From: Rhynchopus sp. YZ270_cl-10
Taxonomy: Eukaryota
DNA: 64,000 nucleotides
Direction of reading: 5' to 3'
Assembly (NCBI GenBank): GCA_964035575.1
Contig: OZ037845.1
Coordinates: 1,488,001-1,552,000, forward strand
Positions 877-61,797 of this stretch are shown here, in pieces. How positions within the stretch are numbered: position 1 is the first letter of the stretch; each line of letters opens with the position of its first letter. Under the pieces are notes generated by a model. The model searched no databases and had not been told where the DNA came from. It saw only the letters and a program-made list of their open reading frames with translations. Both the position numbers and the translations under genes were made by a program.

Positions 877-1528
877 AAGCTCCTTGCACATCTGTTATGC
901 CCACTGCTCCCTCATATCCCATCTCTTTCCCTTCCCCTCTTCCCCGAACGTTAGCACCCTTTTGCTTCCCATTCCACGCAGTTCGAATGTCCAACGAACA
1001 CCCCGAAGGCACCTTCTGCAGAAATGCATGAGTGGCAACGTTGGCGTGACGCACAGTGGTTTCGCATTGTAGGGCAGAAGCGTGCCTTGTAAATTTGTTA
1101 TGTTATGACGGCGCCTGAGAACGCCCCCGACGAGAGAGAGTCTCGCAAACTTGTAAAAAATGTAAAGATAATAAAAAAAAGGGGGGGGGGGGGGGGGAAA
1201 TCCCAGAGTACCAAAGAGGGAGATTACCACACACAAACGAGCCAGTTCACGTCCTCTGTTGTTTGATGCAGCGCAACTATTTTATAGAGAAAATATGTAA
1301 AGAACGAAGGGAAAAGGTTGCGAAGGGGGTCGAACCTGCAACTGTACGCCACTTCTGATGTGTGGATTTAATAAAATTAAAAACTGAGGGACGTTGACAG
1401 CTCGTGCACAAAAAAGACAAAATAGAACAAACCCACCACATTTTGCTTTGATCTGTTGCTCAGTTGCCTTGCCTTCGCTATACACACAGACACACACAGG
1501 CATTTGTATTGTTAGTTGAGGATTAACT

Positions 1529-4847: not shown

Positions 4848-6275
4848 ATGGCAGTCGCGTCACCCATGCCGATGGTGGCGATCTTTGCGCTGTTCCAGCT
4901 GGCCCTGTTGCTGCTGTATGTGTTCTTGGTTGAGTTCCCTGAGGAGTCGGAGATCCAGACGAGCGTCAGCGAATTCACCTTTGCGGGGCTGTACAACTAC
5001 TGGGTGGGTGTGCACATCTTTTTGCTCATTGGTATCGGCTTCCTTGCGTCGTTCCTGCGTAAGTACAGCCTGACTGCAGTGGCGTACAACTACCTCCTTG
5101 TTGCCTTTGCCCTGCAGTGGACCATCCTCGTGTACCACCTCTGGCAGCGTGCCTTTGAGGAGCAGGTCCAGGGCCGCTCAATGTACGACAGAATCCAGAT
5201 CACCACAAAGGACCTTGTTGTCGGCGACTTCGGAGCCCTGACAGTGCTGATCTCCTTCGGGGCGGTGATGGGCAAGGCTGGGCCGGCGCAGCTTCTTGTC
5301 ATGGCGATCATTGAGATCATCATCTCCGAGCTGAACAACGCCATTGCGTACTACGAGTACGAGGCGATTGATGTGGGTGGTGCCACGCAGGTCCACCTCT
5401 TTGGTGCTATCTTCGGGATTATGGCGGCGAAGTTCTATATGTCGGCAGATGAGGTGAAGGAGAAGGATAAGGACAACGGTCTGCAGCGCCGTGCCACCTT
5501 CGCGCACTCCGCCCCAAGCGACCAGCTCTACGTGGCGCGCAACAACTACATCTCCTCCAACAGCACCACCGACACCTTCGGCATGATCGGAACGCTCTTC
5601 CTTGCGGTCTTCTTCCCTGCCCTCAACGCTTCCATGACCGTCGGATACGCCAGAGAGCGCGTCGTGATCGGCACGGTCCTTGCAATGTGCGCCTCCACCA
5701 CTATGGCATTCACCGTCTCAGCAGCCCTCCGTGGCGGGAAGTTCTCGATGGCGGACATCCAGGCCGCAACCCTCGCAGGAGGAGTCATCATCGGGGGGGT
5801 CACCTCTGTGGTGTCTCATGTGTGGGTGTTCATCCTGCTCGGGATGCTTGCGGGGGTGTTGACCGTCGCAGGGTTTGTTATCTTCACGCCGATCCTGGAG
5901 GGTGCAGGGATTCATGACACCCGTGGAGTGTTTTGGCTTCATGGACTCCCCGGGTTTGTGGCAGGTATTGCGAGCTGCATTTCACAGCGCATGGCGAACG
6001 GAACAACGATCTTCGGACAGTCCATCGGTGTGTTGATCCCTGCACGCATGAACGACGACCGCATTCCTTCGTACCAGAGCGCGATGCAGGTTTCTATGCT
6101 CTTCACGACCATCGGTATGGCACTGGCAGGAGGTATCCTTGCAGGCATCGTCATGAGATTCGTCCCCAACATTGGAGATGATGAGCACCCCGTCTTCGAC
6201 GATGCACGCTACTGGGAGGAGCTTGCGGAGGGCAAGAAAAACGATGACGATATCCCGCTTGAGATCGACGCCTAG
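4848..6275 (+). CDS. Rh50: Divergent Rh-type ammonium transporter paralog (475 aa)
   Basis: Colinear with 1529..2908; keeps HLFGA and LHGLPG histidines and the YWEELA...LEIDA tail. A T-tract plus CAG at 4806-4819 is a possible splice acceptor. Confidence 0.92.
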   Translation: MAVASPMPMVAIFALFQLALLLLYVFLVEFPEESEIQTSVSEFTFAGLYNYWVGVHIFLLIGIGFLASFLRKYSLTAVAYNYLLVAFALQWTILVYHLWQRAFEEQVQGRSMYDRIQITTKDLVVGDFGALTVLISFGAVMGKAGPAQLLVMAIIEIIISELNNAIAYYEYEAIDVGGATQVHLFGAIFGIMAAKFYMSADEVKEKDKDNGLQRRATFAHSAPSDQLYVARNNYISSNSTTDTFGMIGTLFLAVFFPALNASMTVGYARERVVIGTVLAMCASTTMAFTVSAALRGGKFSMADIQAATLAGGVIIGGVTSVVSHVWVFILLGMLAGVLTVAGFVIFTPILEGAGIHDTRGVFWLHGLPGFVAGIASCISQRMANGTTIFGQSIGVLIPARMNDDRIPSYQSAMQVSMLFTTIGMALAGGILAGIVMRFVPNIGDDEHPVFDDARYWEELAEGKKNDDDIPLEIDA

Positions 6276-25762: not shown

Positions 25763-26800
25763 CCCTCACAGTAAAAATAATGTTTTTTCAAAAATAAATT
25801 AATAAAAAAATGACCCAAAAGTAACATTTTTTTTGTAACAATTTAATAAAATGTTTTATTCGTTTTTTTGCAGTTGGGCAAAAAGTAACAAATGTTACAA
25901 CGTGGTGTGTTCCGGGGTATGGGATTTTACACATCTTCACACATCTTCACAACTCTTCACAACTTTTCACAAATTTTCACAAATTTTCACAACATAATTT
26001 TGGCCATATTTTTGTGAAGAATTGTGAAGAGTTGTGAATAGTTGTGAAAAGTTGTGAAGAGTTGTGAATTGAAATGAAAATTTGGATGAAAAAAACACAG
26101 ACGTTGTGAATATTTGTGAAGAGTTGTGAACAGTTGTGAAGAGATGTGAAGAGTTGTGAATTGGGAAAACCCCCCCTTTTTTTCTCCAATTCACAACTCT
26201 TCACAACTGTTCACAACTCTTCACAAATATTCACAACGTCTGTGTTTTTTTCATCCAAATTTTCATTTCAATTCACAACTCTTCACAACTTTTCACAACT
26301 ATTCACAACTCTTCACAATTCTTCACAAAAATATGGCCAAAATTATGTTGTGAAAAATTGTGAAAAGTTGTGAAGAGTTGTGAAGATGTGTGAAGATGTG
26401 TAAAATCCCATACCCCGGAACACACCACAACGAAAAAATAAAAAGCCCATGGTTGAAGCACGGGAGTACCATAGGGAACTGGGTTGCTGACCACACCATC
26501 CAGGCTGTACCTCAATTTTTTTTTTGCCTGCGGCGCCATTTTCCCTTTTTTGCTCCGCAAAAAAGGGTTCGTAGAGTGACTCTGTGTAAAAAGCTAGATT
26601 TTTACACCATGGGTTTCCGCGCTGTATGCTTTATTAGCCCCCCCAGTAACATTTTTGTTACGCCTGCGGCGTAACAAAATGTTACAAAAAAATAAAATCC
26701 AAAAAATGAAAAAAGTAACAAAATGCAAAAATGTTATAAAAAAAATAAAAATCGCCGAAATAATTTATTTGTAACAATAACATAATTTATACTATGAGGG
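25763..26800. mobile_element. Tc1/mariner-type MITE inserted in the eIF4A spacer
   Basis: TIR CCCTCACAGTA / TACTATGAGGG with TA on both sides; the empty site ATACACATAACAAGAAA is present in the spacers at ~21166, ~22475 and ~32275. Confidence 0.8.
25903..26427. mobile_element. Foldback (near-perfect palindromic) element nested in the MITE
   Basis: ~260-bp inverted arms starting TGGTGTGTTCCGGGGTATGGG; CAACG duplicated at 25898-25902 and 26428-26432; arms built from TTCACAACTC-type decamers. Confidence 0.85.
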
Positions 26801-38081: not shown

Positions 38082-39065
38082 ATGGCAGAGCAAAGTGCCT
38101 TGGAGCGGGCCCTGCCGTGCTTGAGGGGTGGGGGAGATGTGGTCGTCGTGACCCCAGCTGCGCCTGCGTCTGCCTGCATCGCGCCTGTATTGGAGCTCAT
38201 AGAGGAGGGTACCGTGCGGACTGTGCTTCTTGTTGTGAACGACCCTGAGTCGTACATCAATGCAGTGCGCAACGTGAACATCTCCATCGACACTACAGAC
38301 ACAGACACAGACACACCACAGGTTCTAGTCGGCACTCCGCACCAGCTTCTTATGAGGGAGGATTTCCCTGTAGATATGGTGTACATCTGTGCGTACGGCT
38401 TTGATGCGGCGCGCTATGAAGCGGCTGTGGTGTTGGTCAAAACGCTTGCGTTGCAGGTGTGTGTCATCGCGCCTGCGGTGTGTACGTTGCTTACGAAGGT
38501 GGAGGCAGCGTGCAACCACCCGGTACGCATTGTGGTGAGGGAGCGCGTTGAAACGGCGTGCGACTTTACGCAGTTCTACATTGCAGTGGAGGAGGCGTTC
38601 AAGGTCGAGACGCTGTTCGACCTATACGACAGTGTCTCCATCATACGCTCTGTCATTCTCTGTCAATGCCGCACCACAGCAGACTCCCTGCGGCAGCAGA
38701 TGGTCTCCGTAGGCCACAACGTAGGTGTGCTGCACGGAAACTCCTCTGAGCAAGACATAGTGTCCACGGTAAGAGACTTCTGTACAGGGAGCATCCGGGT
38801 CATGATCCTCACGCTTGACGATATACTAAAGAACGTAGGGAAAGACATTAGCCACCATCGCTGGCTCGCAATTTTTTACAGTGTACCCGCGCAGAGCGAA
38901 CACTATATCCACAACTTCTGCTCCAGACGCCGCTACGGCCACATGCACGACGTGATATACTTCTTCAGTGCAGCAGAAACAGGCATGCTCCTAGAGATGA
39001 ACGCATACTACAGAGACGCCATCCACGAGCTGCCCATGGATCTCTCAGCAGCCCTAACGCATTAG
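38082..39065 (+). CDS. Highly divergent intronless eIF4A-like protein, predicted catalytically inactive (327 aa)
   Basis: Colinear with eIF4A ([49 protein letters not shown]) but lacks the GKT, DEAD, SAT and HRIGR motifs. Confidence 0.85.
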   Translation: MAEQSALERALPCLRGGGDVVVVTPAAPASACIAPVLELIEEGTVRTVLLVVNDPESYINAVRNVNISIDTTDTDTDTPQVLVGTPHQLLMREDFPVDMVYICAYGFDAARYEAAVVLVKTLALQVCVIAPAVCTLLTKVEAACNHPVRIVVRERVETACDFTQFYIAVEEAFKVETLFDLYDSVSIIRSVILCQCRTTADSLRQQMVSVGHNVGVLHGNSSEQDIVSTVRDFCTGSIRVMILTLDDILKNVGKDISHHRWLAIFYSVPAQSEHYIHNFCSRRRYGHMHDVIYFFSAAETGMLLEMNAYYRDAIHELPMDLSAALTH

Positions 39066-44839: not shown

Positions 44840-44998
44840 TTGGGCCATCTATGAACGGGGAGAGATTTTTTAGGTACACTGTCACGAGAGGACTGTTGTA
44901 TTTCAAGTCAACTTTTTTTTTCACTAGCTCTCAGTAAGCTCTCACAGGCTCTCAGAGCCTGTTGCGTTGTCTCACGGAGACGATCATAGATGGTCCAA
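44840..44998 (-). mobile_element. Short copy of the TIR element that spans 53434-60042
   Basis: Ends TTGGGCCATCTATGAACGGGGAGAGA and CACGGAGACGATCATAGATGGTCCAA match the reverse complement of the long element's ends; only ~4 decamer units inside. Confidence 0.8.
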
Positions 44999-47517: not shown

Positions 47518-50409
47518 ATGCTTTTTTCAAAAATGTCGTCGAGTCTCTCATCCATAGAGCCCCAGGTCGCTCCTTCGCCACAGAACTTTCTTTTCGTGGC
47601 ATCTGTGCTGCTCTCACTGTACTCGGCAATAGCGACTGTAGCAGCGCTGGCGATGCAGGACAGTGTCGAGATGTGGGTGTGGTTTGCATCGTTCCTGCCC
47701 ATAAGTTTGTTTTTTGCAGTGTCGTCGTTCGTGCTGCACCGTCACAAACGCAATGCACGTATCATGCATGCGTGGCTGCTGACAACAAGCATGCTGGTGC
47801 TGTATGCAGACCACATATCGAACCATCTCTACGAGGTGTGGCTGCTAAACCTTATGGTCGTTGTGCTTGCCGTCATTGTGGGGGATGCGGCCGTGCTTGG
47901 TGTTGTGTGTGCGGTGCTTGTGGTGAGCATCACTGTTACGACGGTGTGCGAGGTGTCGTCGTGCGAGGAGTTCGACTTCTTTGCCTCTTCGCAGGAGTAC
48001 CACGTGCAGTGGAATGTGGGCTGGCCGTTGTTGGTCACACGCCTTTTGTTTTCTGTGCTGCTTGTCGTGACTGTGCGGCGTGTGACGGCCCTGCGTGCGT
48101 CTTCCGAGCAGTCGACCAACATTGCCATGGAAGTTGTTGACCTGCTCGTGAGCCATGACATAGACGGTGCATACGCAAAGCTTTCTGGGGAGGAGGGTGT
48201 GCATGTATCGTCACTGTACAAGCTCATAAGGACACTGCAGCCCGTTTCTACGGAGGCAAGTCTTTTTGTGCAGGTGACCGATACGGTACACCAGGACGAC
48301 TTTTCCACCGCACCGCGCACCGGCACGCTGCGACCCAAGACCAGTTGGGTGGCGGGCTTGGGGATCGACGTAGGATCACTCTCGCGATCCGCACGTTCCG
48401 CTGGGCCTGATAACTCGTTGTCGATGGACGTCGGGTATGTCATATGCTTGATGTTTTGTTCACCACTACCACATCACATCACATCACATCGCAGGGAGGA
48501 GACCGAGTTGACAGTGGAGCTTCCCCGCCTGAAGACGAGCAGAGCCACCGTGCTCCTCATCGATCTCACGACAAACGGCAACCACACGAATGAGTCCGTC
48601 CATGTGATGCGTGGTGTGGTGACCCAGGCGTGTGCAGCGTTGGCCCGGCATTCGGGTGATGTGGTGGAGATACGTGCGAACCAGGTGCTAGCGTCGTGGA
48701 ATGTGATGAAAGCAACTGCGACCCACGCAAAGTCAGCGTGCCTAGCGGCGCGTGTGTTGATGGATGTGCTCAACGGACACGAGTTTCACTGGTGGTCCAT
48801 CACACTTTCCAGCGGGCTTGTGGACAGCTTCGCAACAGGTCCGCTGAATGCGCAGGTGATCTCAGGGATGCCTGTGGAACAGGTGCGGTCCATGTCGCCG
48901 TTGTCACTGACGATGTGCTGCCCAATCCTTGTGAGCCAAATAACGAAAGGGTTGGTGGGTGACGAGTTTTTGTTCCGTGCTATTGACGTTATATCGTATG
49001 CACCTCCAAGCTCACTGACCCAAGTTGGGGACAACGCGAACAGTGTGCTGACGGTGTACTCGCTGACAGTGGGGATGTCAGCACGGGATGTGGCGCTTTT
49101 CAACCAAGGATTCTCCCACTTCTGCAGTGGGCGATACACTGATGCACTTAACGTCTTCAAGCGTTTTGCAGAGAGTGTCCCGCACGATCTGCAGGCCAAG
49201 CGTATCGTAGCAATGGCAGAAGGGGTGTTGGATGAAAGCCTGTGTTTGCCGAATCCCTACATGAGGGAAATGCTAGAGTGGGAGAACTACGAGAACAAAG
49301 CAGTGTTTGGAGAGAGCAAATGGAGAGAGACACCAGCGCAGGAGGTTGGTCTACCGAAGCTGCAGTCAGTTCTTAGGGCCGATAAGGTTGAACGGCAGAT
49401 ACGTGCCATCTCTACCCCTCAGTCGCCAGCTCCTTCGGACAGCTCTGATTCAGAAGACTCATCGTGTATGCTTCCTCTGGTGCTGCGGGATCAGCGCGCT
49501 GCTCTCTACTTCAGATCCGACAAAGTACTCGGTGTGGGTGCACACGGGTCGGTGTGGCAGGGCATGTGTTCAAATGGCACACTGTCCGCACTGAAGTACA
49601 TACCTATCCCGAAGCAGCAAAACAGAACAACCCTGCCGAAGTGTGATGTACCATCAGCAGCCTCGTCGCTGTCCAGCTCAACTGCAACAAGGCACATCGC
49701 CCTGACTGTTCCATCTCCACGGGAGGGGGCTGCGCGCGCAATGCCCCCTCCGTCGCCACGTCGTGAGGAGACGAATAAGATTGTGCAGGAGATCATGATG
49801 CTGAGCCAGCTGGAGCACGAGAACATCGTCTCCTACCTCGGGTACTGCATGTCGTCGACGCACGTCACCATCTGCATGGAGTGTGCGAACAGCGGGTCTC
49901 TGGCGCAGATTGCGACGCAGTTCCGCGAACTGCCTGACAGTGCCGTGGCACGCTTCACACGCGACATCACCAACGGCTTGGTGTATCTCCACATGAAATA
50001 CGTTGTGCATGGTGACCTTAAGCCTGGGAACGTGCTCCTCCTCAGCGATGGCACCTGCAAACTCACTGATTTCGGGACAGCACGCATCGGGCTGAAGACT
50101 TCTGAATGCCTGGGCACACCAACGTACATGAGCTACGAGGCAGCGATGGGTGTGATCACGCCTGAGAACGACCTGTGGGCTCTGGGTGTGACGATTGCGG
50201 AGCTGCTGGAGGGGTGCCTTCCGTTCCCACAGGAGCTGCGTGGACTCTCGCAGATGCAGTTCTTAAGAAAGGTGCAGAAGGGCGAGGCGATACCAATTAC
50301 GTCAAAGCTGGACACCGCCTCGGCTGACTTTGTGCGGCAGTGCCTTCATCGTGACACGGATGCGAGGCCGAAAGCCAACACAATGTTGCTACACGCGTTC
50401 TTGCTTTGA
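47518..50409 (+). CDS. Multi-pass membrane protein with a degenerate nucleotide-cyclase-like domain and C-terminal STE/MAPKKK-like kinase; probable intron 48435-48494
   Basis: ~6 hydrophobic helices; ATVLLIDL...GDVVEIRANQVLASWN...AKSACLAA cyclase-fold-like segment; kinase motifs GVGAHG, ALK, HENIVSYLG, HGDLKPGN, DFG, GTPTYM, DLWALG. Confidence 0.9.
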   Translation: MLFSKMSSSLSSIEPQVAPSPQNFLFVASVLLSLYSAIATVAALAMQDSVEMWVWFASFLPISLFFAVSSFVLHRHKRNARIMHAWLLTTSMLVLYADHISNHLYEVWLLNLMVVVLAVIVGDAAVLGVVCAVLVVSITVTTVCEVSSCEEFDFFASSQEYHVQWNVGWPLLVTRLLFSVLLVVTVRRVTALRASSEQSTNIAMEVVDLLVSHDIDGAYAKLSGEEGVHVSSLYKLIRTLQPVSTEASLFVQVTDTVHQDDFSTAPRTGTLRPKTSWVAGLGIDVGSLSRSARSAGPDNSLSMDVGYVICLMFCSPLPHHITSHRREETELTVELPRLKTSRATVLLIDLTTNGNHTNESVHVMRGVVTQACAALARHSGDVVEIRANQVLASWNVMKATATHAKSACLAARVLMDVLNGHEFHWWSITLSSGLVDSFATGPLNAQVISGMPVEQVRSMSPLSLTMCCPILVSQITKGLVGDEFLFRAIDVISYAPPSSLTQVGDNANSVLTVYSLTVGMSARDVALFNQGFSHFCSGRYTDALNVFKRFAESVPHDLQAKRIVAMAEGVLDESLCLPNPYMREMLEWENYENKAVFGESKWRETPAQEVGLPKLQSVLRADKVERQIRAISTPQSPAPSDSSDSEDSSCMLPLVLRDQRAALYFRSDKVLGVGAHGSVWQGMCSNGTLSALKYIPIPKQQNRTTLPKCDVPSAASSLSSSTATRHIALTVPSPREGAARAMPPPSPRREETNKIVQEIMMLSQLEHENIVSYLGYCMSSTHVTICMECANSGSLAQIATQFRELPDSAVARFTRDITNGLVYLHMKYVVHGDLKPGNVLLLSDGTCKLTDFGTARIGLKTSECLGTPTYMSYEAAMGVITPENDLWALGVTIAELLEGCLPFPQELRGLSQMQFLRKVQKGEAIPITSKLDTASADFVRQCLHRDTDARPKANTMLLHAFLL

Positions 50410-51159: not shown

Positions 51160-51241
51160 CATATTAAATAGAAAAAACATGGGTGTCATGTACAAAGTAC
51201 GTTTCCACTTTTTTTTCATGTACTTCACGTACTTGATAGTT

Positions 51242-51318
51242 TCTTCTTCTTCTTCTTCTTCTTCTTCTTCTTCTTCTTCTTCTTCTTCTTCTTCTTCTTC
51301 TTCTTCTTCTTCTTCTTC
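51242..51318. repeat. (TTC)n microsatellite
   Basis: About 25 perfect units. Confidence 0.98.
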
Positions 51319-51879: not shown

Positions 51880-52509
51880 GCATACCTTCGCAAATTGACC
51901 CTGATTTTGGGGTGGCGCTACGCGCTACGTCCCTTTTTGCGAATAGGGGTCGTGAGCCTTTTGTACAGGGAATGTTACACCCGTGTGGAGAATGTGGCCA
52001 AAAGTGCTGTTATTTGCATTTTCGGATCACTGATCTTTCCACCGTGGGGTCAATTTCGAAAATTGGACAAGTTCTTGGCACATTAAATTTCGTCAAATTT
52101 GGCCGCATGAACGTACGTACGCTATGTACGCTACGTCATGTAAGTTACGTACGCTACGTTATGTACGCTACGTCGTGTACGTTATGTGCGCTACGTACGC
52201 TATGTATGCTATGTACGCTACGTCATGTACGTTACGTATGCTACGTCATGTACGCTACGTACGCCACGTTATGTGCGCTACGTACACTATGTATGCTATG
52301 TACGCTACGTTATGTGCGCTACGTCATGTACGTTACGTACGCTATGTACGCTACGTCATGTGCGCTACGTACGCTATGTGCGCTACGTACGTTACGTTAC
52401 CGTTACGTTACGCTACGTACGCTACGTTATGCACGCTACCTTATCTCCCCCCCGCTACGTCCCCCCCGCTACGCGCTACGCGCTACGTCATAAATTTGCG
52501 AAGGTATGC
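51880..52509. mobile_element. MITE containing a degenerate TACGCTACGT/TATGTACGC tandem array
   Basis: 17-bp perfect TIR GCATACCTTCGCAAATT / AATTTGCGAAGGTATGC; array ~52110-52490. Confidence 0.75.
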
Positions 52510-53473
52510 CCTCAGGTAAAAAAGAGGTAAATTCGGGCATTATAAGCGGTTCCGACCCTCATGAATACGTCTGGGACCCTCCCAGGACCCCTAAAAGCTG
52601 CAAAAACCATACATTTCCACCCCGGGACCCCAGAAGATGTGGACTGAAGTGTTTTTCGGGTGTTTAGAAGGAGTTTTGTCTGATTGGAGAAATTTCTTGG
52701 CAAGTGTAAAATTTTAGCCCCCAAGCGTGACGCAAACGTGACGCAGTTTTTGGGCTTTTTTTCACAAAAAATCGATTTTTTTTAGACAAGAAATGCTCTG
52801 TGAAGGTCGTCAGGTGGTTTATTGGGATATATGGGTGATCCCCAGGGCGATTTGCGGCCAGGCACGCCCATTTTAGTGGATTTCTTCACCGAAATTTCAA
52901 AAAAATGGGTTTTGGACAGCAAAACGCCCTTGGTGGAACCCCCTACACCCCCCCTGGACACGTCTGAAAAACCCCCAAGGGCCCCCCCGCCACAAAAAAA
53001 TCTCTGGCCCAAACCGCTAAACCGGCATTTAGCGGTTCCAAAACCGTACCACCCGACCCCCCTGGACAACTGCCTTGCAAAGGTTGTAGGGGAGGAAATG
53101 AAAACGTATCTGAGTGTGCCCGAATTTTTGGTGTGAACGATGTAAACACGACACAACTCATCCACGGAAAAGTTTTTGATGTTGTCACCACACACTCCAC
53201 AAAAAGCCGGTGCGATCAACGAAAAATTCTTTTATTTTTCCCGCGTCAAGTACTTTTTCCCCATCTAGTACTTTCTTTATTTCAAGGAGTACTTGACGGG
53301 ATAAGTACTTTTTGTTGTCTCAAATACTTTTGACCCACAGAAAAAAAAAGGAAACGTACTTGATTTATGCCAAGTACTTTCCCTCCCTCATCCCTTTTTT
53401 TTTTTGTTCAGTTGTATTGTGTTTTATTTATAGTTGGGTGATCTATGATCGTCTCCGTGGGACACGTAACAGG

Positions 53474-53725
53474 CTGTGAGACCTTGTGAGAGCTTGTGAG
53501 AGCCTGTGAGAGCTTGTGAGACCTTGTGAGAGCTAGTGAGAGTTAGTGAGAGCTAGTGAGAGCTAGTGAGAGCTAGTGAGAGCTAGTGAGAGCTAGTGAG
53601 AGCTAGTGAGAGCTAGTGAGAGCTAGTGAGAGCTAGTGAGAGCTAGTGGGAGCTGTGAGAGCTTACTGGGAGTTAGTGAGAGTTAGTGGGAGCTAGTGGG
53701 AGCTGTGAGAGCTTACTGAGAGCTG
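53474..53725. repeat. Decamer satellite (GAGAGCTAGT and variants)
   Basis: Tandem 10-mers. Confidence 0.95.
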
Positions 53726-53733
53726 ATGACCTA

Positions 53734-54142
53734 CAGTACACAGTATACACAGTATACACAGTATACACAGTATACACAGTATACACAGTATACACAGTAT
53801 ACACAGTATACACAGTATACACAGTATACACAGTATACACAGTATACACAGTATACACAGTATACACAGTATACACAGTATACACAGTATACACAGTATA
53901 CACAGTATACACAGTATACACAGTATACACAGTATACACAGTATACACAGTATACACAGTATACACAGTATACAGTATACACAGTATACAGTATACACAG
54001 TATACACAGTATACACAGTATACATAGTATACACAGTATACACAGTATACACAGTATACACAGTATACACAGTATACAGTATACACAGTATACACAGTAT
54101 ACACAGTATACACAGTATACACAGTATACACAGTATATACAC
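53734..54142. repeat. Nonamer satellite (CAGTATACA)n
   Basis: About 45 units with a few 7-nt variants. Confidence 0.97.
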
Positions 54143-54296
54143 AATACAAACGCCAGGTGGTCTGAAGAGTGATCTGACCACATTGTCCCAGTATAACATA
54201 CGCCCAATAAATCCATTGAAGAAGGAATATTTCACGTTTGACCACCACAGAATACATGTTGCCAGCCACACCACACCACTAACAAAAAACCCCTCA

Positions 54297-54625
54297 GAGT
54301 TAGTGAGAGCTTGTGAGAGCCTGTGAGAGTTAGTGAGAGTTAGTGAGAGTTAGTGAGAGTTAGTGAGAGTTAGTGAGAGTTAGTGAGAGTTAGTGAGAGT
54401 TAGTGAGAGTTAGTGAGAGTTAGTGAGAGTTAGTGAGAGTTAGTGAGAGTTAGTGAGAGTTAGTGAGAGTTAGTGAGAGTTAGTGAGAGTTAGTGAGAGT
54501 TAGTGAGAGTTAGTGAGAGTTAGTGAGAGTTAGTGAGAGTTAGTGAGAGTTAGTGAGAGTTAGTGAGAGTTAGTGAGAGTTAGTGAGAGTTAGTGAGAGT
54601 TAGTGAGAGTTAGTGAGAGTTAGTG
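54297..54625. repeat. Decamer satellite (GAGAGTTAGT)n, left flank of the retrotransposon
   Basis: About 33 units; resumes in register at 59851. Confidence 0.97.
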
Positions 54626-55346
54626 GGGGTCTCTTTAGGATAAAATATGGGGGGAAAGGTCTTTTTTGGTTAATAGCGCCGAAAAAACGGCAGCGAGGTA
54701 TGTGGTCATGAGGGCGAGACTGGGGAAACACAACACAAAATACTGATGAAGGTGGTGGTGAGATTTCCCCGTAACGTCCTCAACCAACCTTGCCGAAGCA
54801 AGTGGTAAGCAATAACAACAAAAGGGCACGTAGCAATAGAGAAATGGTACGCGCAAAAAAAATATATCCATAGCGAAAAAGGGGGAGGGGGAAAAGACTT
54901 TCTTATTCGCGACATATTTTATCCTAGAGACCCCCCTGGCGTAGCAAAGCTACTTAAACAAGTTTACAGTATGGGGGTCTCTTTAGGATAAAATATGGGG
55001 GGAAAGGTCTTTTTTGGTTAATAGCGCCGAAAAAACGGCAGCGAGGTATGTGGTCATGAGGGCGAGACTGGGGAAACACCCGTCGCTCGTGCCCTGACCT
55101 GTGCCCAACTTTGACGCCACACTGAGGTAGCGTTCTCCACGTGAGAAGCATAATCTCCAATACTGTCTCATGACAGAAAACAACTCCGAACACAAAAAAT
55201 ATGGCACGAAAAAACGTAACGTAGGTAAAAAACAGCCCCACGCGAAACACACGCACGAAACATCAAAAACAACAACCTTGACTCGACCATTCGCACTCCG
55301 ACGACCAGAAAAAACAAAGCCACACCCTAGAAAATAGAAAAAACAT

Positions 55347-58300
55347 CTACTGCAGGACATCGTCAGACACTCTCATCCCCGACGCCTCCTCCACGACGTG
55401 ACCAAACCTGTTGGGACTCAAACTCACGCCCTGACCTGCCAGCTTCTGTCGGGACCCCCAGTCGGCGGGCATCTCGTCGGTCTTAATCCACCTGATGTGA
55501 AGGTGTGCCTTCGCTGCGGAGAGTCGCGTGCTCATCCTCCTCAGAATGGAGTTGCCCAGGCGGGTGCGGGAGTGGCCTCTCCTGAGGACATACTTCACCG
55601 CCTCGTTGTCCACGAAAAGAACGATAGCTGTGTGGCCGCCCTCCAAAGCTGCTGCCATGCCCTTCTCAGCCGCACGCAGCTCCAACACAAACATCTCTCC
55701 AGAGGTGTGCGTCGATTCCCACCGTCCGTGCCTTTCGACGCCAGAAAAAGAGTTCTGCAGCTTCGACACCCAGCCCCAGCCTGTCGTGGACGCGTCGGTC
55801 CATACTGCGATGGAGAAATGTATCGGGGGCGGAGAGGGGAAGGGAACCGTCACACAAGTCTGAATGTTCGCCACAGCGAAAGCTGCCAACTCCTCCTTCG
55901 TCGCAACGTGCATGGCCACGTCGTCATCCCATGACAGCTTCTTGCGGGAGACGAGTTGTGCTTTACTGCGCACGAACTGCAAAGTGTGGCAAAGAAAACA
56001 TAGCTTGAAATCCAGGACGTACGCGGCTCTGAACACAAGTCCGCATACCTTCCACCATTTTCGTAGGGAACAGGTCTCCAGCTTCAGGGTGTCATGAATG
56101 ATGCGTGATGACTTTAACCTCCACTCCTCTGGTAACGAAAAAGATTGCAACGGAAGGTTCCACACTATGCCGATGAAGTCAACGACTTCAGCCGGTTTAG
56201 CCATGGACTTCTTCACGTTTACCTCCGCACCCGCACGCTGCAGACGGTCACGCACAAAAGCCGTCTTAGCCGCCGCCTCAGCAGGATATGCACCCCACAC
56301 AAAAATGTCGTCAAGGTACACAACACCCCATTTGTTCAGAATGGGGCCAAGAAAAATCTCAGAAGTGTTCTGCGCGATGTACGGCGCGTACGCAAAACCC
56401 ATGGGTAGACGCGCCCATCTAAACCAACGTCCCCCAGCCTGCACACAAAAATATTTGGACACCTCGGGTGAGAGGGGGAACTGGTGGAAATACCCCTTTA
56501 GGTCGGTCTGTTGAGCAAAGCGTGCGTTTGACACCTTAAGCATTGTTGCAAGCTTGTGGGGGTTGACCAGGGAGAAAGGCTGTGGCTTGGCGATCCTTTT
56601 GTTAACAGGACGTCCATCCACCACTAGCCTCCGCAGTTGCGGGTCACTCTTCGGGACGTCAAAAACGCAAACTGCGCCCTTCTTGCGGTCAGTCCGAGCA
56701 AGAGGAATCAATACCTTCGACTTCACGCACTCCGACACAAAAGAATTTGGGATTTTTGACTTCGGGCCAGGGAGCGGGATCGGTCCAGATAAAGCATCTG
56801 CAATCTTACGTCCGGAAGTACACCACTGCAGGAAATCAGAGTCCTTCCCTACCTCCTCAGCCATCCTGCGCACGGCCTCCAACACGATTAGGCCCGTGGG
56901 GAAAGAATCAAGGCTTTTCTTTATGATGGGGGGGGGCTTGCAGAGCCCCACGGGGAAGTAGTCGGGGTCAGGCACCTCTATCCCCTCGTCGCAGACTGGT
57001 AGGGGATATTTCGCCCCGTTGATCAGTGCAGCAACTGCAGGGTCTTCAGCTCCTCCGTCTCCCTCATCCGTGCAGATACGTTCGTCGCGTTCAGGTATGC
57101 CGCTGTCTGCCCCACGTTGCTGTGTCGCAGGAGTAGACGCATTCTTTCGTTTGATGCCCCCTGCAGTTGAATCGCTTGCGCCGCTCCTCTCTTGAATGAG
57201 TGCATCCACGTCCCCTTTGGCATGACCTTGCGAATGCGCTCCATCAGCGACTCGAACTCTCGTGTGTTGCCCCCCATCACGGTGTTGTGGTGTTGCACAG
57301 TTCTCCAAAAAGACACCGCGATTGCTGTTAGAGGACCCGGAGGAAGATAGATGGGGGGGCGAGCCACCAGGACGCCCTTCTCCTTCGCAAATAGTTCTGC
57401 TCCTACCTTGATCGGCGACTCCCCTGCACAATGAATCTCGCGCCAATCCGATTTGTTCAGAAAACGTAGGTCTGGGACGCGGGACCTCGTCATGTAGGAC
57501 ATCGCAGCTAAAGCGGCGGCATGTTGGTCTCCGGCCTTGACAAGCTTGTTCACGCCGGTGATGACATCGGAGGGAGGAAGAGGTGGCGCCTGTCTCGGAC
57601 GTACCGCCGCAGATAGTCTTCTGAGCGCCTTCTTTGCCCCCAATACACGGACCGTTGCGACCCCTCTGATCCCTCGCCGCTTGCACTCTCGCAGGATCTT
57701 GCACATGTAGCCTACTACGGAGCGGGGGGCCGCCGTACGTAGCCTGCGGTGCGCGAACTGCAGAAGATGCACTTCCTTGCTCAGATGAGGAGCAGTTGCG
57801 CAGCCCCTCAGGAAATCGCTCCACACTCGTTGCACCTCTCCTTGGGTCGTTGGGGCAGTCGCGTGCAGGTGCAGTTCGTCCCACGGAATCCTCTCGTGCA
57901 TCGCCCTCCCCAGGGCCTTTCCATCCCTGATGGAGAAAAAGTTGTGGTCGACCAAATTGCGGGGACCTCCTTTCGCTCGTGGTAGCCGCGATGCGAATCT
58001 TGTCGTTGGGGAAGGTGGTGGAGACAGATTTGGAGGAGGGCATACGCCCCATCGTAGTGGTGCCGGCTCTTCTTCCGCTTGGTGCAGGCCAACGTGTAGG
58101 CTGTCTGGGCGCAAAGCTGCCTTGTTGTTCTTGTTTTGGCGCAAAGCTGCCTTCTTGTTGTTCTCTTTTGGGCGCAAAGCTGCCTTGTTGTTTGGGCGCA
58201 AAGCTGCCGAATTGTTGACCTTTTTGTCTTTGTCTTTTATCAGGCGCGAAGCTGCCAAATTGTTTTTGTCTTTGTTGTTGTTGTTGTTGTTGTTGTTGTT

Positions 58301-58592
58301 TTTGTTCTTGTTTTTGATTTTGATTTTGTTTTTTCTCAGGCGCAACGAAGCAGCCGATGTTTTTTGTCCCAGGTGCACTGAAGCCGCTGGTTCGCTCTCC
58401 CACTTCCATCTCTCTCTGGTCAGTGGTGCCGTAGTTACTACCTGCGAGGGGCGTAGGAATGGTTCCGAAAAAACCAGTTCGGGCGTTGGTTGGCACCTCC
58501 TCTGGAGTGCCGCGGCTTGTTTTCTGTTCTCGGACGCTTAGGTGCCCTTCCTCCCTGTGCATGAGATGTCGGAGCCTTTCTCTTCTGTCCAA
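55347..58592 (-). CDS. Reverse transcriptase / RNase H polyprotein ORF (true start uncertain)
   Basis: RT: VPKS..RRLVVDGRPVN, DLKGYFHQFPL, LPMGFAYAP, YLDD. RNase H: WTDAS, ELRA, VDN, MPADWGSR. Confidence 0.95.
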   Translation of the reverse strand: MDRRERLRHLMHREEGHLSVREQKTSRGTPEEVPTNARTGFFGTIPTPLAGSNYGTTDQREMEVGERTSGFSAPGTKNIGCFVAPEKKQNQNQKQEQKQQQQQQQQQRQKQFGSFAPDKRQRQKGQQFGSFAPKQQGSFAPKREQQEGSFAPKQEQQGSFAPRQPTRWPAPSGRRAGTTTMGRMPSSKSVSTTFPNDKIRIAATTSERRSPQFGRPQLFLHQGWKGPGEGDAREDSVGRTAPARDCPNDPRRGATSVERFPEGLRNCSSSEQGSASSAVRAPQATYGGPPLRSRLHVQDPARVQAARDQRGRNGPCIGGKEGAQKTICGGTSETGATSSSLRCHHRREQACQGRRPTCRRFSCDVLHDEVPRPRPTFSEQIGLARDSLCRGVADQGRSRTICEGEGRPGGSPPHLSSSGSSNSNRGVFLENCATPQHRDGGQHTRVRVADGAHSQGHAKGDVDALIQERSGASDSTAGGIKRKNASTPATQQRGADSGIPERDERICTDEGDGGAEDPAVAALINGAKYPLPVCDEGIEVPDPDYFPVGLCKPPPIIKKSLDSFPTGLIVLEAVRRMAEEVGKDSDFLQWCTSGRKIADALSGPIPLPGPKSKIPNSFVSECVKSKVLIPLARTDRKKGAVCVFDVPKSDPQLRRLVVDGRPVNKRIAKPQPFSLVNPHKLATMLKVSNARFAQQTDLKGYFHQFPLSPEVSKYFCVQAGGRWFRWARLPMGFAYAPYIAQNTSEIFLGPILNKWGVVYLDDIFVWGAYPAEAAAKTAFVRDRLQRAGAEVNVKKSMAKPAEVVDFIGIVWNLPLQSFSLPEEWRLKSSRIIHDTLKLETCSLRKWWKVCGLVFRAAYVLDFKLCFLCHTLQFVRSKAQLVSRKKLSWDDDVAMHVATKEELAAFAVANIQTCVTVPFPSPPPIHFSIAVWTDASTTGWGWVSKLQNSFSGVERHGRWESTHTSGEMFVLELRAAEKGMAAALEGGHTAIVLFVDNEAVKYVLRRGHSRTRLGNSILRRMSTRLSAAKAHLHIRWIKTDEMPADWGSRQKLAGQGVSLSPNRFGHVVEEASGMRVSDDVLQ
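57023..57901 (-). CDS. Tyrosine recombinase (open frame extends upstream to ~58378), nested in another frame of the RT ORF
   Basis: Catalytic R (TRSRVPDL), HxxR (HSFKRG), H and Y (LRHSNVGQTAAYL); first ATG at 57901. Confidence 0.93.
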   Translation of the reverse strand: MHERIPWDELHLHATAPTTQGEVQRVWSDFLRGCATAPHLSKEVHLLQFAHRRLRTAAPRSVVGYMCKILRECKRRGIRGVATVRVLGAKKALRRLSAAVRPRQAPPLPPSDVITGVNKLVKAGDQHAAALAAMSYMTRSRVPDLRFLNKSDWREIHCAGESPIKVGAELFAKEKGVLVARPPIYLPPGPLTAIAVSFWRTVQHHNTVMGGNTREFESLMERIRKVMPKGTWMHSFKRGAAQAIQLQGASNERMRLLLRHSNVGQTAAYLNATNVSARMRETEELKTLQLLH

Positions 58593-59556
58593 CCCCTGCT
58601 GCTGCCTTCAGGGCGGCTTTCCTGTCCGAGGAGACCCCGTTTGAGGCGGTCATGGATTTGGAGAAGGCCTGGGCCGCCTCCCATCCTTCCTTCGCCCGGA
58701 TGCCTAGGTGCATCACAGAGTTGAGGAGACCGGACAGGATGTCGTTCGGTGGGGAACCTTCCAAGATGCTGAACATGATATCCATGCTCGCCTTGATGGC
58801 ATCCCTGGCGTCCCCTTGCTCCCTTGGCAGGTACATCTCGGTGAGGCGGTTGCGGAGGGTAAGCAGCTGTACCTCCGAGAGCTCGTGCCATTTGTCCGGG
58901 ACGAGCAGTACATTGTCCACTGTGAGCTTCTTGGTAGGGGCGGAAGCCTCGCCTTCGCTCTCGCTATCCCCGATGCTCGCATCCTTCTTCTCATCCTCTG
59001 ACTTGTCCTCATGTGTAGGGAGGGGGGGGGCGGGGGGGGCAGGGTGTTGTGTGTTGGAACGAGGGGTGAAGTGCACGGTGAGGCGTTCGCGCTCCTCGTC
59101 CCTCTCTGCGTCTCTCACGCTCTCCGCCGCAAACGCTTCAGCAACGGTGTTCACGGAGGCGGGAGGGGTAGGCACTTCGGGGGAGTGAGGCAGCTCGGCG
59201 TCGCCCTCCCTCACGACAGCTCCAAAAAGCTCGTCTCCCAGCCTCTTCCGGAGGACTCCAAGGAGCAAAAGAAGACGCAGACAGGGAACATCTGTCCAGT
59301 CCGAGGGCACAGTTCCCGTGACGCGTGCCAACGCAGCGCGCACGTGTTCCTCCCCGAAATCTTCCTTCTCCCCCCGGAAATCCTCAAACGTCCGGACGCA
59401 CAGCGCGCCCGTGACGGACTCCCAGGCGTTTCCCAGTGCAGACTTCACGGCGTCCGACGAATCCGCAACGATGTTCGCAACATCTCGCGACATCCGGAAC
59501 GACCGTGACCCACTCTTGGCCCTGAGCGACTCCAGCGCTTCATCCATAGTGGTCAT
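58438..59556 (-). CDS. Gag-like ORF1 of the retrotransposon
   Basis: First long ORF after A1 (ATG at 59556 or 59547); acidic/Pro-rich middle and basic C-terminus. The call is positional. Confidence 0.75.
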   Translation of the reverse strand: MTTMDEALESLRAKSGSRSFRMSRDVANIVADSSDAVKSALGNAWESVTGALCVRTFEDFRGEKEDFGEEHVRAALARVTGTVPSDWTDVPCLRLLLLLGVLRKRLGDELFGAVVREGDAELPHSPEVPTPPASVNTVAEAFAAESVRDAERDEERERLTVHFTPRSNTQHPAPPAPPLPTHEDKSEDEKKDASIGDSESEGEASAPTKKLTVDNVLLVPDKWHELSEVQLLTLRNRLTEMYLPREQGDARDAIKASMDIMFSILEGSPPNDILSGLLNSVMHLGIRAKEGWEAAQAFSKSMTASNGVSSDRKAALKAAAGVGQKRKAPTSHAQGGRAPKRPRTENKPRHSRGGANQRPNWFFRNHSYAPRR

Positions 59557-59699
59557 GAGGGCGAGACTGGGGAAACACAACACAAAATACTGATGAAGGT
59601 GGTGGTGAGATTTCCCCGTAACGTCCTCAACCAACCTTGCCGAAGCAAGTGGTAAGCAATAACAACAAAAGGGCACGTAGCAATAGAGAAATGGTACGC

Positions 59700-59743
<44 letters not shown>

Positions 59744-59850
59744 TCCATAGCGAAAAAGGGGGAGGGGGAAAAGACTTTCTTATTCGCGACATATTTTATC
59801 CTAGAGACCCCCCTGGCGTAGCAAAGCTACTTAAACAAGTTTACAGTATG

Positions 59851-60009
59851 AGAGTTAGTGAGAGTTAGTGAGAGTTAGTGAGAGCTGTGAGAGCCTGTGA
59901 GACCTTGTGAGAGCCTGTGAGAGCTTGTGAGAGTCTGTGAGAGACTGTGAGAGCTTGTGAGAGCCTGTGAGACCTTGTGAGAGACTGTGAGAGCTTACTG
60001 AGAGCTAGT
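59851..60009. repeat. Decamer satellite, right flank
   Basis: AGAGTTAGTG units grading into GAGAGCCTGT/GAGACCTTGT variants. Confidence 0.95.
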
Positions 60010-61337
60010 AAAAAAATCTCTCCCCGTTCATAGATCACCCAATAGTGCTTACCTCAAAAAAAAAAATGTCAAAAAATGACAGTAAAGCTGCTGTCTGGTT
60101 CAAAACGGGAGGCAAAAATATAGGAACAATTCTTGGATTTGCCTGGACTATGGTCAAACACGTCCTAACGGCTAAAGGCTAACACGATTTTGATGTATTC
60201 CAATATCCAAAAAAAAAAAAAAAACTGTTCCCAGCTCCCCAGCGACACCAGTCGTTCTGTCCTTGTATTTGAATTGAGATATGCCATAGTGCTCATATCG
60301 ATCAGTATTGTACTTTCAACGTTTTTCCAGACTGTTAGCGTATTTTTTTTTCTTCCCTTCAACTATTCCTTGCCATACACACGGGGGGGATGAAGTGTAC
60401 CCGTCTGCATTTCCTCCCGATGGCTGCAGGGGTATGCAGGACTATTCTGTATTGTCCTCAGGGAGGTAAACACCCCTGCCCCTACGAAATGCAAAGTTTA
60501 ACCCTGGCTAGGGTATATAAATGCTGGGCCAGTGGCTTCCCCATGCTATGAAGGGTGTTTGCGCTCGGAGCATGAAACAGCGACAAAAATACAGTCAGGC
60601 CAGAGCTTGCTCTGCTACGCCTAGTGGTTATGGTGTACCGCCTGTAAGGATGTCTCCATGAGGCCCCCCAGCAAACGGGACGCCAAATGGGATGTTGTGA
60701 CCTCCACTGCTCTCATTGCAAAGTACTACAATGAAATACAATGCGAAAGAGTAGCAAAAAACAAAAACAAAAACAAACTTTCAAATCCCCTGTTCTCATA
60801 TCTCGACAATCGTGCACCAAGAGTTGGGTGAAGCAAATGGGAGTACCTGTAAGCTCACAACTCGGCAGAAGGTGGGCCGCCGGCTGACGAGCGGTTGTGC
60901 ACCGCCCCCGTTCACACTACGGTACGGGTAGGTCTTTCGGCTTCCTTTTTCCATGCCTTTGTTGTTGGCCGCAGGGTGCTTGTGCTTTTCATCCAGATGG
61001 CTGGCAGCGTGTCAGTTGGAGGTGCCTGCATAAACTATTATTTCTTTGCTATTTTCTCTTGACCGATTACACCCTATGAACGCCTTTAGCTCATACTAAC
61101 TCATACCTTGTTTATCTTATGGAGAGATCTGCTCACTGAGCCTCGCGCTTAGTCAGCAATGTGCTGTATTTGTTTTGCGTGGCATGAGGCAATTTAGAAT
61201 CTGGACTAGGAAACTTTACGTTGGGATTACCACGAACGTAAATTTTTTTCTTTTCTTTTGAAACTGAATTACCCACCCTTTTTTGCGTGCTATGTGCCCC
61301 CTCTTCCCCCCCTCCCCCAATTTGTTTCGGATAATCC

Positions 61338-61797
61338 CAGGGATATTGCTAACCATCGCCCATCGCCCCACTGAATTTGGGGTTTCCCCCTTTTCCATAA
61401 ACCATCGCACCATCGCCCCACGGTAACTAGTGTACTAGTGTACTAGTGTACTAGTGTACTAGTGTACTAGTGTACTAGTGTACTAGTGTACTAGTGTACT
61501 AGTGTACTAGTGTACTAGTGTACTAGTGTACTAGTGTACTAGTGTACTAGTGTACTAGTGTACTAGTGTACTAGTGTACTAGTGTACTAGTGTACTAGTG
61601 TACTAGTGTACTAGTGTACTAGTGTACTAGTGTACTAGTGTACTAGTGTACTAGTGTACTATGGTACTATGGCCAAGTTTCACAGCTCCGGAGACTATCA
61701 CGGGAGAAAGCTCGGGAGACCCTTTTTTCTTGCCCCCCCCCCTTTTTCAGAAATTATCCAAAAAAAAAATATATCCCGAAAGTTAGCAATATCCCTG
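61338..61797. mobile_element. MITE containing a (CTAGTGTA)n octamer array (61427-61660)
   Basis: 16-bp perfect TIR CAGGGATATTGCTAAC / GTTAGCAATATCCCTG; no TSD seen. Confidence 0.75.

Follow-up and report, generated by a model that had tools for sequence, protein, structure and literature searches.

The 64,000-nt stretch of DNA analysed here (the window) contains a complete tyrosine recombinase (YR) retrotransposon, which most probably represents a new VIPER-like family of diplonemids that is intact, young and multi-copy, and whose recombinase is predicted to join the junction of its repeats A and B to sites resembling that junction, and not to a single satellite. An eIF4A with 90.9% identity to that of Namystynia makes a diplonemid host likely. 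The family would extend intact VIPER-like elements to such a host; the diplonemid genome paper mentions TATE-like ORFs only (PMC10161547). Priming, rebuilding of the ends and target choice in split-repeat YR retrotransposons have so far been modelled, not demonstrated, and the primer and YR specificity of DIRS-1 are given as unknown (PMC7192593). The exact junctions, target motif, junction hairpin and near-identical siblings described below make these questions testable.

Architecture and gene content of the element

The repeats and junctions of the element are as follows:

54624..59850, minus strand: complete YR retrotransposon, A1-gag-YR-RT/RH-B1-A2-B2, 5227 nt including both TG cores
59549..59850, minus strand: repeat A1, 302 nt including a 38-nt run (sense-strand T38 at 59702-59739)
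54702..54973, minus strand: repeat A2, 272 nt, with an A8 run
54972..55079, minus strand: repeat B1, 108 nt
54624..54731, minus strand: repeat B2, 108 nt, with a 30-nt core in common with A2
54702-54731, 55050-55079 and 59549-59578: the 30-nt core common to A and B
54972..54973, plus strand: TG core of the internal B1/A2 junction (template of the donor junction)
54906..55004: imperfect 31-nt inverted repeat (arms 54906-54936 and 54974-55004), 81% complementary, 37-nt loop

The same TG recurs at the outer edges of the element (54624-25 and 59849-50), and the letters read TTAG-TG-GGGGTCTC at the left junction, CAGTA-TG-GGGGTCTC at the internal junction and CAGTA-TG-AGAGTTAG at the right junction, exactly as the preliminary description had given them. 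The B pair (54624-54731 and 54972-55079) is identical at 108/108 nt and the A pair (54702-54973 and 59549-59850) over 161 + 119 nt flanking an A-run of 8 versus 38, which agrees with the earlier statement that the repeat pairs differ in one A-run alone. Exact duplications of 108-161 nt are far longer than chance would produce. The split direct repeats A1 ... B1 A2 B2 are those of the VIPER-like superfamily, and a short core at the ends and internal junction, unaccompanied by an ordinary target duplication, is a feature of the order DIRS. An assembly artefact was considered and rejected: the coding part and repeats are found in 8 runs from 4 studies at half or more of their words, and long A-runs are also seen in runs X6 and X7. 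Among the runs carrying the element, the source sample itself may be X1 or X4, and none of these runs is recorded as RNA.

The coding frames and candidate expression signals, all on the minus strand, are:

58438..59556: Gag-like ORF (so named by position), 372 aa, free of stops
58468..58474: G-TTT-TTT slippery heptamer in the gag frame, a candidate frameshift site
59636..59637: first AG past the T38 tract, 80 nt upstream of the gag ATG, a predicted spliced-leader acceptor
57023..58537: YR frame, 504 aa stop to stop, free of stops; domain at about 57997-57023
55347..58607: RT/RNase H frame, 1086 aa stop to stop, free of stops, open across the whole YR gene

The assignment of the YR frame draws on several lines of evidence: 1) The protein carries the motifs TRSR, AKEK, HSFKRG, LRHS and AAYL with a box of the form H-x-x-K-R, and catalytic-type motifs are kept in 3/3 aligned proteins, in which the box reads HSFKRGA, HSLKRGA and HGVKRGA. 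2) All four matches at E<=10 in a PDB sequence search are integrases (E 0.5-1.5), and one of three YR proteins matches a PHROG integrase (E 5e-4). 3) With the structure model (pLDDT 52, poor in the catalytic half), the best 15 Foldseek rows listed are Cre or Tre, none at E<=0.001, and the VIA comparison ranks the N-domains of Cre, Xer and IntI 1, 2 and 4 (Z 6.2-6.5), none at Z>=8. Pfam missed the YR in 4/4 scans. Each homology signal is weak alone and all agree; judged by sequence and predicted fold, the ORF is a tyrosine recombinase, as in the order DIRS.

The RT matches RVT_1 (E 1e-14) and has its YLDD motif at 56318, a form kept in 10/10 family RTs. The RNase H motifs DAS/E/D/D (55802-55469) recur in 8/8 aligned proteins, with weak RVT_3/RT_RNaseH matches in relatives, and the frame closes about 40 residues past the last of them. 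Domain scans of the element and its relatives gave no match to an integrase or protease, and the combination of RT and RNase H with neither a DDE integrase nor a protease is again that of the order DIRS. There is no Dam methylase match in the element and no room for such a gene. The Gag-like ORF has no Pfam match and no CCHC knuckle. The order gag, YR, RT/RH, the overlap of YR with RT/RH and the lack of a methylase are VIPER-like features, and the earlier reading of a YR retrotransposon that has split direct repeats and the gene order of VIPER/TATE is supported.

Relationships and age of the family

VIPER (solo form SIRE) of kinetoplastids resembles the element in the following respects: 1) According to PMC6681497, it has the order gag-YR-RT/RH and the layout A1...B1-A2-B2 with some repeats 100% identical, lacks a methylase and has a long RT/RH frame (948 aa aligned in T. 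cruzi). 2) By eye, copies from C. fasciculata carry the YR box H-S-I/L-K-R-G-A (HSIKRGA/HSLKRGA) and A-W-x-T-A-S-R, in general form H-S-x-K-R-G-A and x-W-x-T-x-S-R. 3) It makes no target duplication (PMC12278014). 4) A single C. fasciculata copy (n=1, judged by eye) has a 5' edge similar to the internal junction around a TG. VIPER differs in its kinetoplastid host and D-N RT motif, whereas here the host is likely a diplonemid, the motif is YLDD and Gag lacks a CCHC box. Further differences are the 30-nt A/B core with the gag ATG, the 31-nt junction inverted repeat, which the part of PMC6681497 at hand does not mention for VIPER, and repeated insertion in a MITE-like minisatellite. The use of D-N at the RT motif (in all 4 VIPER/TATE copies compared by eye, absent here) and of the YR box H-S-x-K-R-G-A (present here) as marks of the group is our own by-eye observation and not a published one.

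TATE of Leishmania (Viannia) and other kinetoplastids shares the gene order, the repeat layout and a fixed phase in a short G-rich tandem repeat, but its target is the telomeric hexamer, against a decamer and other G-rich sites here (PMC6681497). By eye, its YR has P-S-I-R-K-G-A and a long N-terminal part, and its RT has L-I-D-N. Ngaro (for instance in Cafeteria burkhardae) is likewise A1-ORFs-B1A2B2, with solo AB units and nesting in another mobile element, but has the order gag-RT/RH-YR, H-x-x-R and a Pfam-detectable YR (PMC8547959), whereas here YR precedes RT/RH and has H-x-x-K-R. DIRS-1-like and PAT-like elements have a short core at both ends and the internal junction, proposed to recombine with a like target without duplication, and DIRS-1 cDNA is single-stranded and mostly linear; they differ in a methylase after RNase H, which is lacking here (PMC3266345, PMC7192593). 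DIRS further differs in its inverted termini, ICR and 3-nt core (mostly NTT), whereas the present element has split direct repeats and a core of 2 nt. Short tandem repeats are also the target of the YRs of CryptonV (microsatellites; PMC8869645) and of nimaviruses (telomeric pentamer; PMC10871703), but these belong to a DNA transposon and a large DNA virus without RT and are reported to be specific, whereas the present family is not exclusive.

The proposed membership of the VIPER/TATE group is supported by gene order and repeats, with YR motifs favouring VIPER over TATE, and not by the RT motif. In the RT tree the family (99/95) falls within a clade of 32 rows (100/99) that also includes D-N-type RTs and a D. 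papillatum Pol, this tree containing no named VIPER, TATE or Ngaro; nor did 20 clusters of RT relatives that were looked up include any of these names, only D. papillatum Pol and a Papus transcript. An RT-only tree groups the Papus ankaliazontas RT with the family. In the outgroup only P0020 and P0016 gave weak methylase-type matches, that of P0020 being Dam-like. It is rather unlikely, though worth serious consideration, that the element is VIPER-style but of a separate YR-retrotransposon lineage, sister to VIPER/TATE, with a gene order shared by older descent. The uniform YLDD of the family RTs, set beside D-N in 97/144 next relatives and the four VIPER/TATE RTs, would fit this alternative, as would the 23.7% identity to D. 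papillatum Pol. Against it, the YR motifs are by eye close to those of C. fasciculata VIPER, and D-D recurs in several branches of the D-N clade, which indicates that the RT motif is labile.

The RT cluster has 16 members, of which nine long ones compared are 98.8-100% identical (15 of the 16 are listed, on 14 different-sized contigs), and six long members of the nine-member YR cluster are 96-99.8% identical. By these comparisons the family is young and multi-copy, and the near-identical repeats in the window copy, together with the near-identical RT copies, support the earlier claim of recent activity. Sister RT families share 35-49% protein identity with it. An exact scan of JGI metagenomes for the end pattern gave 0 matches; the RT profile had 2/339 candidates confirmed there, both distant (30% and 25%) and without the element ends, and 0/15 in viral contigs. 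A 3431-nt X3 contig was rejected as a diverged sister family, as it ends inside repeat B and continues into 3.4 kb of flank.

The host array and the choice of target

The element lies within the following host features:

53434..60042, plus strand: MITE-like host element with perfect 15-nt terminal inverted repeats (53434-48 and 60028-42)
54296..54625, plus strand: decamer array left of the element, 33 units, 30 of them consecutive TGAGAGTTAG
59849..60006, plus strand: decamer array right of the element, about 16 mixed units
53725..54295, no strand assigned: second interruption of the decamer array, containing a 9-nt TACACAGTA array (53737-54141)
44840..44998, minus strand: a further, short copy of the MITE-like element (159 nt) with 3-4 decamer units

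The MITE-like element has TAG at both outer sides and the decamer minisatellite also at 53476-53724. Taking out the retrotransposon and keeping one TG leaves an unbroken run of TGAGAGTTAG units, and among the 20 unit phases on both strands none resembles the donor junction as closely as the phase used (5/9 nt; next 4). Thus both the in-register insertion and the donor-target resemblance proposed earlier are confirmed. The "satellite" of that proposal is a real tandem array of decamers, but an expanded minisatellite of a dispersed MITE-like element rather than a free-standing satellite. This MITE-like element, the 30-nt A/B core and the junction inverted repeat are observations additional to the preliminary description.

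Flanks of other copies were sampled in 16 junction rows listed from 7 other sequencing runs, contigs at one place being merged into a consensus and 48 further loose ends per search lying outside the rows listed; some rows are the same locus in related runs, and flanks may be those of solo A-B units or older copies. A decamer flank occurs in 2/16 rows listed, in the same register (X8, left, 4 contigs merged; X5, right), so that these runs contain one or more additional decamer insertions in register. Other flanks are TGTGTGGG, TAGGGG, GCTGTG and GGGG-GAGGG, those of X1 and X2 being GGGTGT/GGGTGA-like hexamers; a GGGTTA array, as at the fixed telomeric position of TATE, is absent from all junction flanks listed. 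The legible flanks are all G- or GT-rich, the fourth base past TG is G in 4/4 flanks with letters displayed, and in one flank (X3, X5 and X7) the core has G in place of T. The target motif TG-N-G-N-G-K was drawn after these flanks were seen, with the first bases of three rows inferred from alignment. As the decamer TGAGAGT fits it every 10 nt, expanded MITE-like arrays would be a frequent but not exclusive landing site; in the window 39/412 TG.G.G[GT] sites lie within decamer arrays, which make up 1.3% of bases. The flanks compared are thus not random and yet not decamer-only, and the idea of a satellite-specific family, with nearly all copies in one repeat, is not supported, 14/16 rows listed being other than decamer. 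As targets vary, the case for a sequence-specific integrase is weaker than proposed. The available part of PMC9341512 holds nothing on YR targets.

It is improbable that the family is a true decamer-targeting autonomous one, the remaining flanks being those of solo A-B units, of older copies or of sister families that have different targets. The window copy and the X8 and X5 junctions do share one register, one non-decamer flank adjoins a copy whose 2 differences over 63-67 nt mark it as older, at least 8 sister RT families match each other or this family in contig size, and TATE reportedly occupies a single position in the telomeric hexamers (PMC6681497). Besides the many non-decamer rows, it is opposed by the X1 flank, which adjoins a 200-nt repeat A match with 0 substitutions and 1 gap, and by the divergence of the sister RTs, which makes it unlikely that sister repeats would match at >=90%. 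We regard as even more doubtful a recombinase that needs a TG (or G) core only, the decamer reflecting chance or the survival of harmless insertions in repeats. Just 1-2 nt are common to all junctions, as the G-for-T flank illustrates, the flank sample is small, and selection favours copies in repeats. Yet only 1.2% of TG sites in the window (102/8514), decamer-rich as it is, lie in arrays, while 2/7 legible flank types are decamer, every decamer junction uses the phase closest to the donor, and every legible right flank is rich in G or GT. Joining of the A/B junction to junction-like sites is accordingly the reading we prefer.

Expression, the junction hairpin and a possible insertion cycle

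The gag ATG sits inside the 30-nt A/B core; D. papillatum 5'-UTRs are about 70 nt (PMC10161547). At G-TTT-TTT the YR (-1) and RT (-2/+1) frames are both open. A cycle of the following form may be envisaged: 1) Most of A1 would be lost when a read-through transcript receives its spliced leader near 59636. 2) A slip at the heptamer in gag would give access to YR and RT. 3) During reverse transcription, the internal copies A2 and B1 would serve to restore the missing ends, producing the donor junction CAGTA-TG-GGGGTCTC. 4) Crossing-over by the recombinase, at the TG or within it, would join this donor to a target close to TG-N-G-N-G-K, without target duplication.

The inverted repeat surrounds the internal junction, and a hairpin is predicted in single strands (z -5 to -8). 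Integron and CTX-type substrates provide comparable cases of recombination of folded single strands. A speculative version, to which we give only a modest chance, is that the recombinase acts on folded single-stranded cDNA, with TG at a bulge of the hairpin, by a single exchange into any TG-N-G-N-G-K duplex. If so, both a donor structure and a target motif would for the first time be defined for a split-repeat YR retrotransposon that is intact and recently active, and the family would be the founder of an undescribed diplonemid radiation. A 3' fold-back of the element is also predicted (z -5.7); self-priming from it is a minor option, since it does not by itself restore A2-B2. The junction of a circular form of the element would read identically to the internal junction.

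Anatomy and coding capacity of the retrotransposon

The element at 54624-59850 reads A1-ORFs-B1-A2-B2 on the minus strand, A and B being its split direct repeats; on the plus strand B2 occupies 54624-54731, A2 54702-54973 and B1 54972-55079, followed by the coding region and A1 (59549-59850). B1 and B2 are identical (108/108), A1 differs from A2 only in the length of an A-run (38 versus 8) that is bordered by 161 and 119 identical nt, and the A 3' end and the start of B have 30 nt in common, within which lies the gag ATG. A TG is present at the internal B1|A2 junction (the donor junction) and at both element ends, and excision of the element with retention of one TG leaves 15 consecutive TGAGAGTTAG units in the printed stretch. 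The insertion phase is the best of 20 against the donor junction (5/9 nt). The junctions and repeats thus read as the preliminary description had claimed, namely as a split-repeat tyrosine recombinase (YR) retrotransposon lying in register in a decamer array via TG. Three open frames were found in the element.

Open frames of the retrotransposon
59556-58438, minus strand: Gag-like ORF, 372 aa
58537-57023, minus strand: YR frame
58607-55347, minus strand: reverse transcriptase (RT)/RNase H frame, open over the entire YR gene

The RT is unambiguous (RVT_1, E 1e-14), and the Gag-like ORF has no Pfam match and no CCHC motif. The YR is too divergent in sequence for a Pfam match; its motifs TRSR, EK, H-x-x-K-R-G, RH and YL are conserved in all three aligned proteins, its four PDB sequence matches at E<=10 are all integrases (E 0.5-1.5), and one of three YR members has a PHROG integrase match (E 5e-4). 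With a weak structure model (pLDDT 52), the best 15 Foldseek rows shown were Cre/Tre (E 0.07-0.72), and VIA placed Cre, Xer and IntI N-domains at ranks 1, 2 and 4 (Z 6.2-6.5, rmsd 2.8-3.4, over 70-85 residues). Each test alone is not significant; combined with one another and with the architecture, they make the YR assignment firm.

The decamer array and target choice

The decamers are flanked by perfect 15-nt inverted repeats (53434-48 and 60028-42) with TAG outside both, and the ends of this 53434-60042 element recur in a 159-nt relative (44840-44998) that has only 3-4 decamer units. Given the shared terminal repeats and the few units of the short copy, the "satellite" is the expanded minisatellite of a MITE-like element of an undescribed family; as the number of units is 3-4 in one copy and ~74 in the other, it grew inside that element. 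The outer flanks are TAG/TAG in the long copy and ATA/AGA in the short one. The array is broken twice, by the retrotransposon and by a 9-mer block at 53725-54295 (~46 copies of TACACAGTA); ACAGTA is common to this 9-mer and the retrotransposon A end (TTTACAGTA).

Contigs from seven of the ten element-carrying sequencing runs (X7 twice) were aligned to the element and those at one place merged, giving 16 distinct junction rows displayed at 54972-54980, with 48 further loose ends per alignment outside this sample. Two of these 16 have decamer-family flanks: the X8 left junction has GTGAGAGCGT-type units (4 contigs, agreement 0.87) and the X5 right junction continues GTGAGAGCCTGTGAGAGCTT. Both are in the same register as the window, and their adjacent units are unlike the window's, which implies at least one further decamer insertion, of which the two rows may be the two ends. 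The other 14 rows displayed are as follows.

Flanks outside the decamer family, with the sequencing runs in which they occur
TGTGTGGG-type flanks: X1, X7, X2
TAGGGG flank: X2, X5
G-CTGTGCCC flank: X3 twice, X5, X7
GGGG-GAGGG flank: X8
left flank ending CAGAG-G: X3 (with 3.4 kb of flanking sequence), X5, X7
mixed flank, letters unreadable: X8

Among the rows displayed there are thus seven legible flank types, two of them decamer. Some of the junctions displayed are therefore in-register insertions into decamers, most are not, and the satellite targeting proposed earlier, taken strictly, fails on this sample (2/16 rows displayed). Random targeting also fits poorly: both the window copy and the four flanks with displayed letters carry G as the fourth base past TG, for which the post hoc chance is ~0.013 (G frequency 0.237, three independent types). 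In the window 102 of 8514 TG sites lie in decamer arrays, as do 39 of 412 TG.G.G[GT] sites; hence a loose donor-like motif alone gives an eightfold decamer concentration.

The CAGAG-G left and G-CTGTGCCC right flanks co-occur in runs X3, X5 and X7 (place 54973-54975); if they belong to one insertion, the crossover fell between T and G, with G alone shared. The flanks in X1 (54973) and X2 (54978) are degenerate GGGTGT/GGGTGA/GGGTTT hexamers that look like variant telomeric repeats and may echo the way TATE chooses its targets. Depth of A and B relative to the coding part is ~2-fold in X1 and X6 but reaches ~7-fold in X2 and is higher by far in X7, and although depth is not copy number, the excess in X2 and X7 is as expected from many solo A-B (SIRE-like) units.

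Affinities, host and age of the family

The element works like VIPER, TATE and Ngaro. Its gene order, and the fact that it has no methylase, set it outside Ngaro, PAT and DIRS as these are defined (PMC8547959, PMC7192593). By-eye translation of supplement copies in PMC6681497 indicates that its YR motifs match those of Crithidia fasciculata VIPER and do not match those of Leishmania braziliensis TATE. The four VIPER/TATE RTs read from that source have D-N, whereas the element family has YLDD in 10/10; among 144 next relatives 97 have D-N, 41 D-D and 6 another motif. In an RT/RH tree of 39 rows hand-picked from 170, midpoint-rooted and without named VIPER, TATE or Ngaro, the family (support 99/95) falls within a 32-row clade (100/99) alongside Diplonema papillatum Pol, to which the element is 23.7% identical; the seven rows outside are taken as DIRS/PAT-like or unplaced. 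Membership of the VIPER-like group is therefore likely, not proven: layout and YR motifs favor it, and YLDD speaks against it. Of the earlier interpretation, membership of the VIPER/TATE group stands as likely and the satellite specificity is not supported; the value of the locus lies in a clean young copy, a definable target motif and a junction hairpin, rather than in a satellite-specific integrase.

Tyrosine recombinases that insert into short tandem repeats have already been reported for TATE (PMC6681497), CryptonV (PMC8869645) and nimaviruses (PMC10871703). On diplonemid YR retrotransposons, searches of openly available papers listed no description beyond one sentence on TATE-like ORFs in PMC10161547. 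The sister RT families P0003, P0005, P0007, P0008, P0061, P0062, P0158 and P0159 are found on contigs whose lengths recur among them and in the element's own family, which suggests that nine or more families radiated within a single host assembly. They are 35-47% identical where measured, and several have an RT frame open for 1035-1164 aa. A distant DIRS/PAT-like RT locus (L002:1-340) starts with a tandem array of ~33-nt units.

The host is likely a diplonemid: the window's eIF4A has GT-AG introns, and its C-terminal 220 aa group with those of Namystynia karyoxenos, a diplonemid, at 90.9% identity. The RT cluster of the element has 16 sequences, 15 listed members lying on contigs of 14 distinct lengths, with 98.8-100% identity among the nine long members compared; six aligned members of the nine-member YR cluster are 96-99.8% identical, and at least half of the element's sampled words occur in each of eight runs from four studies. 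On these sequence comparisons the family is young and dispersed, and the near-identical cluster members and paired repeats bear out the recent insertion previously suggested.

Proposed mechanism and other features of the window

In the integration model of PMC3266345 and PMC7192593, a short junction core recombines with a like target without duplication, and the paired repeats are near-identical at insertion (PMC6681497). The first AG past the T38 tract (59637-36), which precedes the gag ATG by 80 nt with no other ATG on the way, is a putative spliced-leader acceptor, since this distance is close to the ~70-nt 5'-UTRs given for D. papillatum (PMC10161547). An mRNA so spliced would lack most of A1, and A2 would therefore be needed to rebuild it. 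A G-TTT-TTT heptamer at 58474 in the gag frame, where the other two frames are both open, is by general slippage rules a candidate slippage site. A 31-nt inverted repeat surrounds the junction with 37 nt between its arms, a spacing exceeding that of the usual YR core site. It is predicted to fold as a single-strand hairpin (z -5.2 and -6.1 as RNA, -8.0 and -7.1 as DNA; 100 shuffles each); by analogy with DIRS-1 cDNA, described in PMC7192593 as single-stranded and mostly linear, a folded single-strand donor at this hairpin is plausible.

Elsewhere in the window, 31-6275 holds three ammonium-transporter genes in tandem, Rh-type on reading, and 13533-41069 a tandem cluster in which eIF4A genes, whole or fragmentary, contain GT-AG introns; the complete copies begin near 13533, 22688, 28459, 32489 and 39234, and a diverged paralogue lies at 38082-39065. 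A 527-nt palindromic element at 25902-26428 (91% self-complementary, 10-nt TTGTGAAGAG-type units) is likely a fold-back element. The protein encoded at 47518-50409 (963 aa) is predicted to contain membrane segments and ends in a kinase domain (Pkinase, E 5e-46), and simple arrays occur at 51241-51318 (TTC x26), 52114-52444 (TACGTACGC-type) and 61426-61669 (palindromic ACTAGTGT x30).
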